Positions 3,451-9,164 of a DNA stretch of 64,000 nucleotides are shown piece by piece; within the stretch, counting starts at the first letter, position 1, and each line of letters starts with the position of its first letter. The position numbers and the translations under genes were made by a program. The DNA comes from Alistipes sp. (lineage in GTDB: Bacteria; Bacteroidota; Bacteroidia; Bacteroidales; Rikenellaceae). The notes beneath the pieces were generated by a model. The model made no database searches. It had not been told where the DNA came from and was given only the letters and a program-made list of their open reading frames with translations. Location of the stretch: NCBI GenBank assembly GCA_017437045.1, contig JAFSBY010000042.1:1643-65642 (forward strand). The letters run 5' to 3'.

Positions 3451-3572
3451 TAGAAATTCAAAATTTAGAATTCAAAATTTAGAATTATTTTTCTTGAATT
3501 ACAAATTACATTACATTACAGGGGGTGCACCCTGTAATGTAATGTAATTTGTAATTCTAAATTTTGATTTTG
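3451..3572. repeat. Family A palindrome copy 1 with flanking TTAGAATT/CAAAAT tandem repeats
   Basis: Perfect 28-bp arms 3496-3523 / 3530-3557 (gaattacaaattacattacattacaggg). Outer caaaatttagaatt repeats 3451-3487 are mirrored at 3553-3567. Confidence 0.9.
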
Positions 3573-3615
3573 CAAAAAGCTGCGCAATAAGATTGGATGT
3601 TCCGCGTTTATTGCG

Positions 3616-3623
3616 TACTTTTG
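3616..3623 (+). promoter_or_regulatory. Bacteroidetes sigma-A -7 box (TACTTTTG)
   Basis: Matches TAnnTTTG, 26 bp upstream of ATG 3650. Confidence 0.6.
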
Positions 3624-3649
3624 CACCTTGGAAAATAAGCCACTTACCA

Positions 3650-6600
3650 ATGATACACAATTTTCGCACCTGGAATAACTTAGTCGGCTGGGGCGTCTTT
3701 GCCATAGCTGCCGTGGTCTATCTGCTGACCATCGAGCCCGTAGCCAGCCTTTGGGACTGCTCGGAGTTTATCGCCACCTCCTATCGCCTCGAGGTCGGCC
3801 ACCCGCCCGGAGCACCGCTCTTCATGATGCTGGCCCGCATCGCCTCGCTCTTTGCCCCCTCGGAGGAGTATGTCGCTATGGCCGTCAATGCGATGAATGC
3901 CCTGGCGAGTGCCTTCTGCATCCTCTTCCTCTTCTGGACGATCACCCACTTGGGGCGTCGCCTCCTTACGCGTGGCGGAGCACCCCTGACCCCGGCAGGC
4001 AGCTGGGCTGCGATCGGTGCCGGAGCTGTCGGTGCGCTGGCCTATACCTTTACGGACACCTTCTGGTTCTCGGCCGTCGAGGGGGAGGTCTATGCCCTCT
4101 CGTCGATGTTTACGGCCTTGGTCGTGTGGCTCATGCTGCGGTGGGAGGATCAGGCCGATGAGCCCCATGCCTGGCGATGGATTGTCTTGATCGCCTACTT
4201 GATGGGCCTCTCGATCGGTGTGCACATCCTGAACCTGCTGACGATCCCCGCCTTGGTCTTCATCTACTACTTCCGCACGACGGAGCGGGTGACGCTCGGC
4301 GGATTGGTTCTCTCGACCCTCGTGGCGGGTATTATCCTGCTGGTGATCAACGGCATAATCATCCCCTATACGGTCTATTTCGGGGCGATGCTCGACCTGT
4401 TCTGCGTCAATACCCTGGGGCTGCCCGTGAACTTCGGCATGGCCCTCTTTGCGCTGCTGCTCATCGGCGGATTCGGCTACGGAGCGTGGCTGATGCACCG
4501 CAAGGGCAAGGTGCTCTGGAACGTGATCCTGCTCTCGACGACGATGATCCTGGTGGGCTTCTCGTCCTATGCCACGGTGACGATTCGTGCGGCTGCCAAC
4601 CCACCCATGAACTCGAACAACCCGAACAACCCCCACGCCCTGCTCTCGTTCCTGAACCGCGACCAATATGGCAATCGTCCGCTCCTCTACGGAGCCTACT
4701 ACTCGGCACCTCCCGAGGGGTATGTCGAGAAGACGAATTGGTATTTGGACGAGGATGGGAAGTATAAGCAGGGGACGACGATCTCGGGCTATACGTTCGA
4801 TCCGAAATTCATGCACCTGTTCCCCCGCATGTGGAACTACAGCAAGTCGGAGCGCGACTACAAGCAGTGGTCGGCCTACCGCACCAAGAGCGAGGTGGTC
4901 CGCGACCGCGAGGGCAACATCGTGCGCGACGAGCGGGGCAATCCGCTGCGCGAGGAGGTGTTAGACTATGGTCAGAAGGTGCTCTACGACGATGGCTACG
5001 AGGTGCAGACGATCATCGAGCCAACCTTTAGGGAGAACCTGAATTTCTTCTTCACCTACCAGCTCAACTACATGTATTGGCGCTATTTCTTGTGGAATTT
5101 CGTCGGTCGCCAGAGCGATATTCAGCCCACCTCATCGACCATCACCGATGGCAATTGGATGTCGGGCATTCGGGCCGTGGACGAGCTCTACCTGGGCCCG
5201 CAGGAGAACCTGCCGCGCGAGATCGCCGAGAACAAGGGGCGCAACCACTACTATTTCCTCCCCTTCCTGCTCGGTTTGGTGGGTCTGCTCTATCAGCTCA
5301 ACCGCGACCAGCGCAACTTCTCGATCGTCATGTGGCTCTTCATCATGACCGGTGTGGCGTTGGTGGTCTACTTCAACTCCTCGCCCGGTGAGCCGCGCGA
5401 ACGCGACTATGTCTATGCCGGATCGTTCTACGCCTTCTCAATTTGGTTGGGGCTGGGTGTGCTGGCCTTCTACGAGCTCTTTGCCTGGATCACCCGCCGC
5501 AAGAGCTGTGCCGCAGCGGCTGTGGCGACGCTGCTCTGCCTGGGTGTGCCGACCCTCTTGGCGGCCGAGAACTGGGACGACCACGACCGCTCGGGTCGCT
5601 ACATGGCTCGCGACATCGGCTGGAACTACCTGCAATCGACCCTGCCGAACTCGATCATCCTGAACTATGGCGACAACGACACCTTCCCGCTGTGGAACAA
5701 CCAGGAGGTCTACAACGTGCGTCCCGATGTGCGCATCATGAACACCTCCTACTTGGGTGGCGAATGGTACATCGACGAGATGAAGACCGCAGCCAACGAT
5801 GCGGCCGGAGTGCCCTTCACGCTGCCGAAGTATAAATATACCTATATGAACGATTGGGTGCCGATCAAGGAGGTGATCGACCGTCCGGTCAATATCAAGG
5901 AGGTGATGTCGTTCATCCGTAGCGACGACCGTGCCTCGCAGATCAAGTTGGTCGATGGCTCCTACACGGACTACCTGCCGACGCGCAAGATTGCCTTGCC
6001 GGTGGACAAGGAGAATGCCATCCGCTCGGGCATCGTCAAGGAGGAGGATCGCTCGCTGATGGTCGATACGGTCTATATGGAGCTGCGCGGCTCGTCGATC
6101 GACAAGAATAAGCTGATGATCCTCGACATGCTGTCGAACTTCGATTGGAAACGCCCGATCTACCTCACGCAGGTCTATATCCTGCAAGATCTGGGGCTGA
6201 TGGACTACCTGCAATTCGACGGCTACGCCTATCGTTTGGTGCCGATTCGCACCCCCAGCGAGAGTGCTTGGGACATCGGACGCATCGACCCGGATTATGC
6301 GGCTCCGCTCCTGCGCGATACGTTCCGCTACGGCAATTTGAGCGACCCGGAGGTCTATGCCGACCACTTCGTGCAGTACAATTTAGGGGCCTCGGGGGCA
6401 CGTCAAGCCTTTGCGCGGGTGGCCAAATCGTTGTTGGCCGAGGAGCGCGTGGCTGAGGCGGTCGAACTGCTCGATTTAGGTCTGGAGCGTCTGCCCGTGG
6501 AGCAGATTCGCTTTACGGATGCCAATACCTATCCCTTCTTAGAGGGGTACTATGCTGCCGGCATGATGGGCGACGAGACGGCCAACGAAAAGGGCGATCG

Positions 6601-6856
6601 ACTGATGATGGCCTACCTGAACAACCTGATCGAGTACATCGAGTACTACCTGCAGTTCGAGGGTGCACAGGCCGAGATGGTGGATCGTGCGCTCAGCCGC
6701 CGCTTCGAGGAGCTGGAGGAGGCCTATCTGCTCGCCTCGTATGCGCGTCGTTACGACCTGCTGCGCTATATGAACGACTACTACCGCACGTTGGGTGTCG
6801 AGGAGAAGGACCTGATGCCGATCCCCGGCGAACAGACCGAGGCACTGGATCGGTAG
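3650..6856 (+). CDS. DUF2723 domain membrane protein (TMEM260-like GT-C fold glycosyltransferase)
   Basis: SLWDCSEFIATSYRLEVGHPPGAPLF, FWFSAVEGEVYA, ERDYVYAGS, YGDNDTFPLW motifs; many hydrophobic segments; about 1070 aa. Confidence 0.88.
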   Translation: MIHNFRTWNNLVGWGVFAIAAVVYLLTIEPVASLWDCSEFIATSYRLEVGHPPGAPLFMMLARIASLFAPSEEYVAMAVNAMNALASAFCILFLFWTITHLGRRLLTRGGAPLTPAGSWAAIGAGAVGALAYTFTDTFWFSAVEGEVYALSSMFTALVVWLMLRWEDQADEPHAWRWIVLIAYLMGLSIGVHILNLLTIPALVFIYYFRTTERVTLGGLVLSTLVAGIILLVINGIIIPYTVYFGAMLDLFCVNTLGLPVNFGMALFALLLIGGFGYGAWLMHRKGKVLWNVILLSTTMILVGFSSYATVTIRAAANPPMNSNNPNNPHALLSFLNRDQYGNRPLLYGAYYSAPPEGYVEKTNWYLDEDGKYKQGTTISGYTFDPKFMHLFPRMWNYSKSERDYKQWSAYRTKSEVVRDREGNIVRDERGNPLREEVLDYGQKVLYDDGYEVQTIIEPTFRENLNFFFTYQLNYMYWRYFLWNFVGRQSDIQPTSSTITDGNWMSGIRAVDELYLGPQENLPREIAENKGRNHYYFLPFLLGLVGLLYQLNRDQRNFSIVMWLFIMTGVALVVYFNSSPGEPRERDYVYAGSFYAFSIWLGLGVLAFYELFAWITRRKSCAAAAVATLLCLGVPTLLAAENWDDHDRSGRYMARDIGWNYLQSTLPNSIILNYGDNDTFPLWNNQEVYNVRPDVRIMNTSYLGGEWYIDEMKTAANDAAGVPFTLPKYKYTYMNDWVPIKEVIDRPVNIKEVMSFIRSDDRASQIKLVDGSYTDYLPTRKIALPVDKENAIRSGIVKEEDRSLMVDTVYMELRGSSIDKNKLMILDMLSNFDWKRPIYLTQVYILQDLGLMDYLQFDGYAYRLVPIRTPSESAWDIGRIDPDYAAPLLRDTFRYGNLSDPEVYADHFVQYNLGASGARQAFARVAKSLLAEERVAEAVELLDLGLERLPVEQIRFTDANTYPFLEGYYAAGMMGDETANEKGDRLMMAYLNNLIEYIEYYLQFEGAQAEMVDRALSRRFEELEEAYLLASYARRYDLLRYMNDYYRTLGVEEKDLMPIPGEQTEALDR

Positions 6857-6876
6857 AGGGTCGTTAGCCCCCCCCG

Positions 6877-7318
6877 ATTACAAATTACATTACATTACAG
6901 GCCATGCCCCCTGTAATGTAATGTAATTAGTAATTGGAGGCGAAGCCTCCAATTACTAATACCTACAATCCCTCCTAAATCCTCCCTTTGATAAGGGAGG
7001 ACTTGAGGGGTAGTTCTAACGACCGTCTGTGCTGGGGTTCTAATAACCGCTGATACAGAGGGAGTTATAAGAATAATAAGAATAATAAGAATAATGTGAA
7101 TGCAGACGCTTATAGGAATAGGACTTTAGGCAGCCTTCACATAATTCCTATAACTCTTATTTTATTCCTATAATTCACTCTAAATTCTCAATTTAGGCGA
7201 ATCCAATTCATTTTGAATTCTAAATTCTAAATTTTGAATTTGGCCTTCGCAGCCTCCCAATTACAAATTACATTACATTACAGGGGGCATGGCCTGTAAT
7301 GTAATGTAATTTGTAATT
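6877..7318. repeat. Composite nested inverted-repeat element (family A copies 2 and 3 in opposite orientation, GCGAAGC hairpin, family C hairpin, 9-mer and 7-mer tandem repeats)
   Basis: Palindromes 6877-6934 and 7259-7318 with reverse-complementary cores ggccatgccccc / gggggcatggcc; 14-bp hairpin 6928-6958; (ATAATAAGA)n near 7068-7094. Confidence 0.9.
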
Positions 7319-7349
7319 CGATATGTCGATTGTAAGCATGACCTTCGGG

Positions 7350-9137
7350 TCACTGCTGTATTTTTACCAACTGCTCGCGGTAGGCATTCAGGATGCGCGA
7401 TTTGGAGATAAAGCCCAGATAGCGATTCTCCTTGTCCACGACGGGCAACATCCAGGTGCGCCCATCCTCAAATTTGGGCAGAATCGACTGTATGGCCTCG
7501 TGCTGCAAGATGCGATCGGGCGGCTGAATCATGTAGCTCATGATCGTAGTCCCATACTTCTCGCGCTTGAACATATCCTTGCGCAGGTCGTCTAACTGCA
7601 CGACACCTAACAGATGGCCGAAATCGTCGATCACGGGGAAGATATTGCGCCGTGCCGTGGCGATGATGTTGATCAGATCGCCCAAGGTCATGTGCTCGCG
7701 GATGCGGATAAAGTCGGTCTCCATCAGCTCGTCGAGCTTCAGGAAGACGAACACCGACTGATCCTTGTCGTGGGTGAGCAGCTCGCCTCGCTGCCGCAAC
7801 TGCTTGGTGTAGATCGAGTCGGGATCGAGCCAATAGTTTAGGGCGAAGGAGATGCAGGCGGTGATCATCAGCGGGATGAAGAGTTCGTAGCCGTTCGAGA
7901 GCTCGGCAATCAGGAAGATCGAGGTCAGCGGGGCCTTCATCACACCGGTCATCACACCGGCCATGCCGACCAACGTGAAGGAGGCAATCGGCACATCGAG
8001 GTCGAACAACGCATTGCAAATCAACGCCAACGCTGCGCCCGTGAAGGCACCGACGAAGAGCGACGGGGCAAACGTACCACCCACACCACCGGCGGCATTG
8101 GTCGTCGCCATGGCGATCACCTTGAAGAACATCGTGGCGATGACGAAGAGGATCACGACCCACTCGATGTGGCTGAAGGCGTAGAAGAGCGAGTTGTCGA
8201 AGAGCGGCCCCGTGCGCCCCTGCATCAACTCCGTAAAGGCCTCATAACCTTCGCCATAGAGGGGCGGGAAGATGAAGATCAGCAGGCCGAGCACGGCACC
8301 TCCGATGAGCCATTTGTGGTATTGCTTGGTCTGTCGCTTGAAGAACCGCCCCACGCGGGCATTCATCGTCGTGAAGTACCAGGCCATCAAACCGCAGCAG
8401 ATGCCCAGCAGGATGAAGAGCGGGATCTGCCACAACTCGAACCCATCCTCGGGGCTGAGTTTCACGGCGATAATGGGGTCGAAGCCGCGCAGGATAAAGG
8501 CCATGGTCGTGGCCGTGACGGTGGCAATGAGCAGCGGGATGATCGACGTGGCCGTGATGTCCAACATCAGGATTTCGAGCACGAAGACCAAGCCGGTGAT
8601 CGGGGCCTTGAAGATGGCCGCCACCGCTGCACCCGCACCGCAGCAGAGCAGCAGGGTGGAGTATTTGTAGTTCAGACGGGCCAATCGACCGACATTCGAG
8701 CCGATGGCTGCACCCGTGAGCACGATCGGGGCCTCGGGACCCACCGAACCACCAAAACCGATCGTCGTGGCACCGCCTACGACCGAGGTCCAGGTGTTGT
8801 GCGGAGCGATCTGCGAGTTGCCCCGCGACATGGCGTAGAGCACGCGCGTAACCCCTTCCGAGATGTTATCGCGCACGATGTAGCGCACGAAGAGCGTGGC
8901 CAGGATGATACCGATGACGGGGTAGATCAGGTAGAGAAATTGGGCCTCATCGACCGAGAACCACCGGGTCAGCCCCTCCTCGATGGCGTGCAGCAGCAAC
9001 TCAAAGAGGAAGGTCCCCACACCGGCCAGCAGACCGACAATGACGGCCAGCACCATCAGCATCTGGCGGGTCGAAAGACGCCGCGTCAGACGCAGAAAGT
9101 AGGCGTAGATGCGATCGGTAAAGCCGGAGAGGGTCAT
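7350..9137 (-). CDS. CLC chloride channel/transporter with C-terminal CBS pair
   Basis: GGSVGPEAP (gating Glu motif), AAIFKAPITG, GGTFAPSL, and two CBS-like C-terminal domains. Confidence 0.93.
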   Translation of the reverse strand: MTLSGFTDRIYAYFLRLTRRLSTRQMLMVLAVIVGLLAGVGTFLFELLLHAIEEGLTRWFSVDEAQFLYLIYPVIGIILATLFVRYIVRDNISEGVTRVLYAMSRGNSQIAPHNTWTSVVGGATTIGFGGSVGPEAPIVLTGAAIGSNVGRLARLNYKYSTLLLCCGAGAAVAAIFKAPITGLVFVLEILMLDITATSIIPLLIATVTATTMAFILRGFDPIIAVKLSPEDGFELWQIPLFILLGICCGLMAWYFTTMNARVGRFFKRQTKQYHKWLIGGAVLGLLIFIFPPLYGEGYEAFTELMQGRTGPLFDNSLFYAFSHIEWVVILFVIATMFFKVIAMATTNAAGGVGGTFAPSLFVGAFTGAALALICNALFDLDVPIASFTLVGMAGVMTGVMKAPLTSIFLIAELSNGYELFIPLMITACISFALNYWLDPDSIYTKQLRQRGELLTHDKDQSVFVFLKLDELMETDFIRIREHMTLGDLINIIATARRNIFPVIDDFGHLLGVVQLDDLRKDMFKREKYGTTIMSYMIQPPDRILQHEAIQSILPKFEDGRTWMLPVVDKENRYLGFISKSRILNAYREQLVKIQQ

Positions 9138-9142
9138 GGAGC

Positions 9143-9164
9143 GAATTTAGAATTTAGAATTTAA
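9143..9164. repeat. Heptamer tandem repeat (AATTTAG)n between trpS stop and clc start
   Basis: gaatttagaatttagaatttaa; same unit as at 3451-3487 and 7216-7241. Confidence 0.6.

Follow-up and report, generated by a model that had tools for sequence, protein, structure and literature searches.

A hypervariable, non-coding mosaic repeat locus between two convergent genes of a gut Alistipes, probably reshuffled by recombination between palindromes

Introduction

In the NIME arrays of Neisseria, 20-bp dRS3 inverted repeats (ATTCCCN8GGGAAT) flank diverse RS units, the number of units in an array differs between strains, and recombination at the boundaries is the favoured hypothesis (PMC1797815). 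Of the systems compared here, these arrays are the closest architectural match to the locus described below, a 442-bp composite between two convergent genes of an uncultured gut Alistipes. In both, short palindromic boundaries with a GC-rich centre separate diverse, AT-richer non-coding units of 50–300 bp, several boundaries occur per array, unit number and array length vary between strains, and boundary recombination is the working hypothesis, no dedicated enzyme having been established (PMC1797815). Arrays of boundary repeats, variable units and strain-differing unit number were all found in Alistipes. The likeness is one of working and not of membership in a sequence family: the Alistipes boundary, unrelated to dRS3, is a perfect palindrome of 60 bp whose arms are pentamer microsatellites; copies number in the tens, as against hundreds for NIME; the host is a gut Bacteroidota, where natural transformation is not known to be involved; and no phage is known to integrate at the palindrome.

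REP/BIME and REPIN-RAYT systems of E. coli and Pseudomonas also consist of extragenic palindromes clustered with conserved linkers (PMC2817692, PMC3333891, PMC3116915). As in Alistipes, two inverted palindromes can form one long hairpin and the repeats are frequent between convergent genes. The BIME linker has its counterpart in a conserved module order (B-C-F-G-E), but the relative orientation of neighbouring palindromes is not fixed, and they do not alternate regularly. An earlier sequence-only reading of the locus had suggested a REPIN-like unit. This assignment was not sustained, as no RAYT/Y1 transposase was found and the genome has just 8 palindrome copies (a count from a draft assembly, which may hide some) where REPINs have tens to hundreds. 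In REPIN-RAYT genomes the cognate RAYT, a Y1 HUH transposase, is usually encoded between REPs. In addition, the spacer between palindromes is 320 nt and not tens of nt; the two copies at this locus are inverted and pair over 61 nt but lie 319 nt apart, and other alleles have direct copies or three of them.

Within the Bacteroidales, the BrickBuilt MITE of Porphyromonas gingivalis resembles the Alistipes mosaic in being species-restricted, strictly intergenic and low-copy (19 for BrickBuilt), with a tandem-repeat array inside, small inverted ends and a strain-variable copy structure; it consists of a single array of 23-nt bricks, with a leader before it and a tail after it, and promoter activity has been shown for it (PMC4596501). 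The Alistipes mosaic has terminal inverted repeats and a small non-coding size, as MITEs do, but differs in its several module types, nested palindromes and boundary palindromes that stand alone. Mazel in 1990 and Elhai in 2008 reportedly described AT-rich 7-nt tandem arrays (STRR) in cyanobacterial spacers, and small dispersed palindromic repeats nested like a Russian doll. Heptamer arrays in spacers, nesting and fast turnover between strains are common to both; the phylum and the sequences differ, and the Alistipes arrays are inverted pairs that form palindrome arms.

We consider it probable that the 442 bp are one allele of a hypervariable non-coding mosaic repeat locus, NIME/BIME-like, that is reshuffled by recombination between palindromes. 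We found no description of these Alistipes repeats in the literature. The locus adds a gut Bacteroidota example to the few mosaic intergenic repeat systems (NIME, BIME), whose spread is unexplained when RAYT is absent.

Results

Anatomy of the composite

The window (the whole 64,000-nt stretch analysed) comes from a metagenome-assembled genome (MAG) of an uncultured gut Alistipes (Rikenellaceae; 2.22 Mb, 45 contigs, 93% complete), an assignment made from the flanking CLC protein. A 493-nt spacer at 6857–7349 lies between two convergent genes, with these features in and beside it:

3593–6856, plus strand: gene for a TMEM260-like/DUF2723 membrane protein, left neighbour of the spacer
6877–6937, no strand: palindrome A, left copy, with ATTAC-pentamer arms (6877–6900, 6913–6936) and a 12-nt centre ggccatgccccc (6901–6912)
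6926–6960, plus strand: module B hairpin, a 16-bp perfect stem with core GGAGGC/GCCTCC and a GAA loop
6961–7012, plus strand: module C hairpin CCTCCCTT-tgat-AAGGGAGG with conserved flanks
7013–7069, plus strand: module F, two direct GTTCTAAnnACCG 13-mers (7013–7025, 7037–7049), then a conserved tail
7062–7178, plus strand: module G, a 9-mer array ATAAGAATA x3.2 (7067–7095) folded on a complementary tract (7133–7161)
7179–7244, plus strand: module E, an AT-rich heptamer array AATTCTA/AATTTTG at 7210–7241
7243–7258, plus strand: B-like half site (ggccttcgcagcctcc) that joins the cassette to the right A copy
7259–7318, no strand: palindrome A, right copy, with 26-nt perfectly complementary arms and centre gggggcatggcc
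7339–7352, minus strand: small GC hairpin (tgaccttcgggtca) overlapping the CLC stop codon
7350–9137, minus strand: gene for a CLC chloride channel, right neighbour of the spacer

The sequence-only reading had described a single element with inverted termini. The inverted copies are there (6877–6937 versus 7257–7317, 61 nt, 98% complementary, 319 nt apart), with the cores that it had named, ggccatgccccc and gggggcatggcc, the right centre being the reverse complement of the left. However, the left terminus is itself self-complementary over 31 nt at 90% and the right over 26 nt at 100%. Each terminus is therefore a whole palindrome, and the "inverted termini" are two hairpin copies and not the halves of one. 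The view of the 442 bp as one unit had to be given up, as its ends are independent palindromes that also occur singly.

Between the palindromes, all of the claimed structures were found again. The module B hairpin (arms 6926–6941 and 6945–6960) has the perfect stem and GAA loop reported for it but is longer, with 16 pairs measured in place of 14; its outer bases are common to the right arm of the left A copy. The module C stem (6977–6988/6993–7004) spans 12 nt at 92%. The 9-mer tracts of module G do face each other (7075–7103 versus 7133–7161, 83% complementary; the array itself is 3.2 copies at 100%), and the 7-mer tract of module E holds 4.6 copies, with an imperfect fold-back between 7179–7196 and 7220–7237. 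No open reading frame longer than 26 amino acids lies inside the composite, as expected from the claim that none explains the region. The GC hairpin at 7339–7352 is native flank, common to alleles with a single A, and lies outside the repeat.

A repeat family dispersed across the genome

This MAG contains 8 copies of palindrome A (60 bp, with ATTAC-pentamer arms and a GC-rich 12-nt centre), and none was found in 200 further Alistipes species genomes that were searched. Some copies are solo (e.g., window 3496–3557), and the centres occur both as GGGGGCACCCCC and as its reverse complement GGGGGTGCCCCC. When the spacer was compared with its own genome by BLAST, the interior resolved into a cassette of about 320 nt with the fixed module order B-C-F-G-E, in which module G is optional, being missing from "short" cassettes. 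The same succession of modules is seen again, next to A or A-like palindromes, at five or more other loci, among them C8:24860–25580, C13:81460–81740, C13:83540–84080 and twice on contig C16. The C8 locus repeats the A...A plan with an additional outer layer of inverted E arrays; nesting is therefore a trait of the repeat family. These loci bear out the proposal of a dispersed, non-coding, hairpin-rich composite at an insertion hotspot.

Module C has 25 genome copies (against 0 in a reversed-sequence control), module E 23 arrays and module B about 10 hairpins; all of these counts are lower bounds, since several contigs of the draft MAG end in E or C modules. E and the core of C, unlike A, are present in other Alistipes species too. 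The B loop changes in nearly every copy (GAA, GCA, GTA, TTC, AGA and others); GCGAAGC is therefore not conserved, and the special role proposed for this mini-hairpin falls away. The C stem has T..A in 17 copies, C..G in 7 and a mixed pair in 1. This variation preserves pairing, and two subfamilies could alone account for it.

Contig C16 also carries a second palindrome family (50–125, 2330–2415 and 2650–2710; L129), with GTAACG-type 8–9-mer arms and the centre GGGGTGCACCCC, as in A. These palindromes take A's position beside E arrays and cassettes; the centre is kept and the microsatellite arms differ.

Strain alleles at the TMEM260-like/CLC junction

Conspecific assemblies were collected via members of the CLC protein's 90% identity cluster. 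The strain evidence comes wholly from metagenome assemblies, which can mis-join repeats. Flanking-gene DNA is 98–99% identical to the window in most assemblies and 96–97% identical in L009 and L121. These last two have a spacer of 116–125 nt with a single A and 0 cassettes. In L103, L104, L107, L109, L113–115 and L118–120, the spacer is 382–721 nt long, with 2–3 A copies and 1–2 cassettes. However many copies an allele has, one A immediately follows the TMEM260-like stop codon. Presence or absence, unit number and orientation thus all vary across strains, the opposite of the invariance that the sequence-only reading had named as speaking against it.

The unit gained or lost between strains is about 385 nt, a cassette plus one A. 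L115 is missing the second unit of L104, and what it has aligns with the first A-cassette-A there at 96.8% over 308 nt; L104 and L109 have spacers of 708 nt and 480 nt between flanks that are 99.4% identical. What separates the window from the solo alleles is a block of 383 nt with the repeated arm at its borders. When the two A copies of the window were joined in silico, a join via their left arms gave the L009 allele (98%, same centre gggggcatggcc) and one via their right arms gave the centre orientation of L121 (ggccatgccccc). No target-site duplication was found at this junction beyond A itself.

Orientation varies as well. The cassette reads B-C-F-G-E in the window and E-G-F-C-B in all nine other distinct composites at the junction, and the A pair around the cassette has direct centres in L119 and L115 and inverted centres in the window. 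The window composite is not an assembly accident, since a 1,093-bp stretch across it is 100% identical, in the same orientation, in two independently assembled samples (identity and orientation were read in these two; six further contigs with the same CLC protein are not among them). An artefact could have been suspected from the MAG source, as repeats break assembly and E or C modules lie at the ends of several contigs. The sequence-only reading had also suggested a scar left by a lost cargo gene; this would have to explain why all loci have the same non-coding modules in their interior, without any piece of a gene and with no reading frame above the 26 amino acids already given. Either account, artefact or scar, is scarcely credible.

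Despite the 98–99% identity of the flanks, cassettes are 80–87% identical throughout (at this junction, at the neighbouring junction and elsewhere in the genome), and oppositely oriented ones are about 84% identical. A near-identical donor of the window cassette was sought within the same genome, among the other strains' alleles of this junction and at the cysS-side junction, and none was found, all candidates being 80–87% identical. The orientation difference may therefore reflect an independent insertion and not an inversion in place. The window allele also retains the outer flanks of the solo alleles, while those of the other composites differ, including an E array on the CLC side, which favours separate events. 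The difference in orientation is real, and on these alignments it may have arisen by independent insertion into a solo A.

These observations bear on whether the locus is a phase-variable inverton, in which a promoter would be switched by a site-specific invertase that turns over the 319 nt between the inverted A copies. Bacteroidales are rich in invertons (invertible promoters), and as in these, a stretch of a few hundred bp lies between inverted repeats (here of 61 nt) and occurs both ways round in conspecific strains. We regard this as very unlikely here. Both independent assemblies read share the window orientation and the other lineages all have the opposite one, so each lineage seems, judging by the assemblies, to have a single orientation; opposite cassettes are only about 84% identical. 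There is no invertase gene nearby, no adjacent tyrosine recombinase and no serine recombinase in the genome, and the position is between two gene 3' ends, with promoter signal not above chance.

Neighbouring junctions

The two adjacent spacers of the window carry related features:

3455–3572, no strand: solo A (3496–3557) wrapped by inverted E arrays, in the divergent cysS/TMEM260-like promoter spacer
9144–9161, minus strand: 2.5 AATTCTA heptamers, in the 23-nt class-Ib tRNA synthetase/CLC spacer (9138–9161)

The cysS/TMEM260-like spacer holds 2–3 A and 1–2 cassettes over about 575–790 nt in G031, L103, L104 and L113, and it is also filled in L121, whose contig ends within the composite. In L119 and L120, the site is empty and one AATTT is kept; in the window, this 5-nt sequence flanks the element as a direct repeat. 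The pattern of filled and empty sites is also compatible with transposition and target duplication.

The synthetase/CLC spacer is without a repeat in the 96% relatives and holds a 200–390-nt composite in five other strains (among them L103:5670–6000, L113:5600–6000, L115:2620–2880, L123:5790–6000), with about 3 to 13 heptamer copies. No target duplication was found there. These composites replace the last codons and the stop of the gene (...AEKKA* becoming ...AKFKM* or ...AKSKM*), and in some strains they thus rewrite the end of the neighbouring tRNA synthetase. As modules lie in divergent and co-directional spacers too, they are not confined to convergent gene ends.

Search for a mobilising enzyme and known families

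In the 93%-complete genome, Y1/RAYT transposases (PF01797) had no match while control genomes matched, and serine recombinase and IS110 genes were not found. Four tyrosine recombinase genes are present, none of them adjoining a repeat island. Two are Xer-sized, and the other two belong to large genus-wide integrase families with no species-specific distribution; these two large integrases were considered as the engine and rejected as ordinary members of their families. No A copy adjoins a transposase gene, and no autonomous parent with A ends was found. Since 7% of the genome is missing and contigs end in repeats, an enzyme gene could be unassembled. A lone TnpB/Cas12f-like reading frame (C17:70350–71816, L134; 488 aa, PF07282 match) is distant from all repeat islands. 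Two composites on C13 enclose a segment (81700–83550; L127:3740–5540) that was considered as a recombinase carrier; it contains a DUF4377 gene and a truncated piece of a short-chain dehydrogenase instead.

The spacer had no match in phage, plasmid and viral-contig collections. A metagenome pattern scan gave 0 matches with the flank pattern and 2 with the A pattern, both on unrelated AT-rich contigs.

A non-autonomous element moved in trans would be either a MITE with A-derived ends or a cassette for which A is a lox/FRT-like core site; in the latter case, a trans-acting tyrosine recombinase would integrate, excise and invert cassette circles. Several observations are in keeping with such movement. 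First, A has the geometry of a recombinase core site, with 24-bp inverted arms and a nearly symmetric 12-bp GC spacer. Second, gain or loss always involves a cassette plus one A, as for the integration of a one-site circle, and the cassette lies between direct centres in L119 and L115. Third, AATTT is repeated at the filled cysS-side site as compared with the empty one, and the genome does have four tyrosine recombinase genes. We nonetheless judge movement in trans, in either form, to be unlikely though possible. The tyrosine recombinases are Xer-sized or of genus-wide families, and no recombinase or transposase gene lies beside any repeat island; RAYT, IS110 and serine recombinases were not found in the genome, nor was an autonomous copy with A ends; and the synthetase/CLC composite overwrites gene-end sequence without a target duplication.

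One form of this idea would reach further, and we hold it to be doubtful: A could be the core site of an unrecognised site-specific recombination system that moves non-coding hairpin cassettes as circles between chromosomal docking sites. Speculatively, A would be lox-like, its 24-bp inverted arms enclosing a GC-rich spacer of 12 bp that is nearly symmetric, and the GTAACG-type arm family of C16, which has the GGGGTGCACCCC centre in common with it, would belong to the same scheme. If this were true, one enzyme would yield integration, excision, inversion and centre flipping, and the system would be a non-coding counterpart of integron cassettes.

Folding and possible function

Folding of the region as single-stranded DNA or RNA had been proposed along with the sequence-only reading, and the 493-nt spacer is indeed extremely stable relative to dinucleotide shuffles (DNA z = −15.8, RNA z = −16.9, about −16 either way; 0/100 shuffles match). 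Such folding would fit a selected function between the TMEM260-like and CLC genes: as a terminator or insulator that works both ways, as a stabiliser of mRNA 3' ends or as a structured small RNA. The retention of an A right after the TMEM260-like stop codon in each junction allele, and the paired T..A and C..G variants of the C stem with one mixed copy only, point the same way. However, modules also occur in a divergent promoter spacer and a co-directional spacer, hence they are not tied to 3' ends, and whole units come and go among near-identical strains, one site being empty in two strains. Rfam 15 gave no match at gathering score, only sub-threshold ones of generic hairpins to eukaryotic miRNA-precursor models. 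No terminator-like site (a GC-rich stem-loop with a T run) was found in 6700–7500, and promoter-like sites were at the shuffle expectation or below. More distant Alistipes have an ordinary 85-nt terminator at the TMEM260-like/CLC junction. Orientation is independent of replication direction: modules are split about 50:50 relative to GC skew (C copies: 5 with, 6 against), and a replication-direction polarity of the modules was rejected for this family on these counts. Considering these points together, we think a selected function quite improbable.

Proposed mechanism

We infer recombination between palindromes as the mechanism, together with a lack of selected function. In this scheme, A would be the recombination point between units. 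Because A is two-fold symmetric, any two copies share both direct and inverted homology, and exchange between them could proceed via homologous recombination or via replication template-switching at the hairpin. Such exchange would add or remove a cassette plus one A, turn the cassette one way or the other and reverse the asymmetric centre of A; it could also leave a solo A, with its centre either way round. Exchange between internal modules such as E would give further variants. Template-switch correction of quasi-palindromes and slippage deletion of long palindromes are established bacterial mutation routes, and template-switch correction or slippage would also hold the microsatellite arms complementary. 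Insertion at the loop centre was considered as well and rejected; it predicts chimeric or perfectly symmetric centres, which the alleles do not show.

Under recombination between palindromes, the element, which encodes nothing, would most likely be DNA that is selfish or neutral and is tolerated chiefly where gene ends converge, with at most side effects on transcript 3' ends. The locus supplies clean natural before/after alleles (solo, one-unit, two-unit and opposite orientation) in strains that are 96–99% identical, and these are suited to asking if palindrome-palindrome recombination alone moves cassettes. Such loci are strain-typing markers, and they cause contig breaks, and possibly chimeric joins, in Alistipes metagenome assemblies. 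In L105 (7789–8571), the CLC-side composite is followed by a DUF4377 gene in place of the TMEM260-like gene; either the repeats brought about a real rearrangement here or the assembly is chimeric.

Related arrangements in other species

In a more distant Alistipes (L017:5770–6510), the CLC/TMEM260-like junction holds a GC-rich spacer of about 750 nt with internally repeated GC-rich segments, unlike the AT-rich modules. Another Rikenellaceae MAG (L013:6550–6730) has inverted arrays of an AGTTGAA-type heptamer on both sides of an ordinary terminator hairpin, where the corresponding gene ends; fold-backs whose heptamer arms have another unit sequence therefore exist in related species. Inverted pairs of E-type heptamer arrays occupy the two ends of a spacer in other Alistipes species (L002:1160–1200 and 1490–1540; L006:1495–1535), and one of these arrays begins within a gene's last codons and provides the stop codon.
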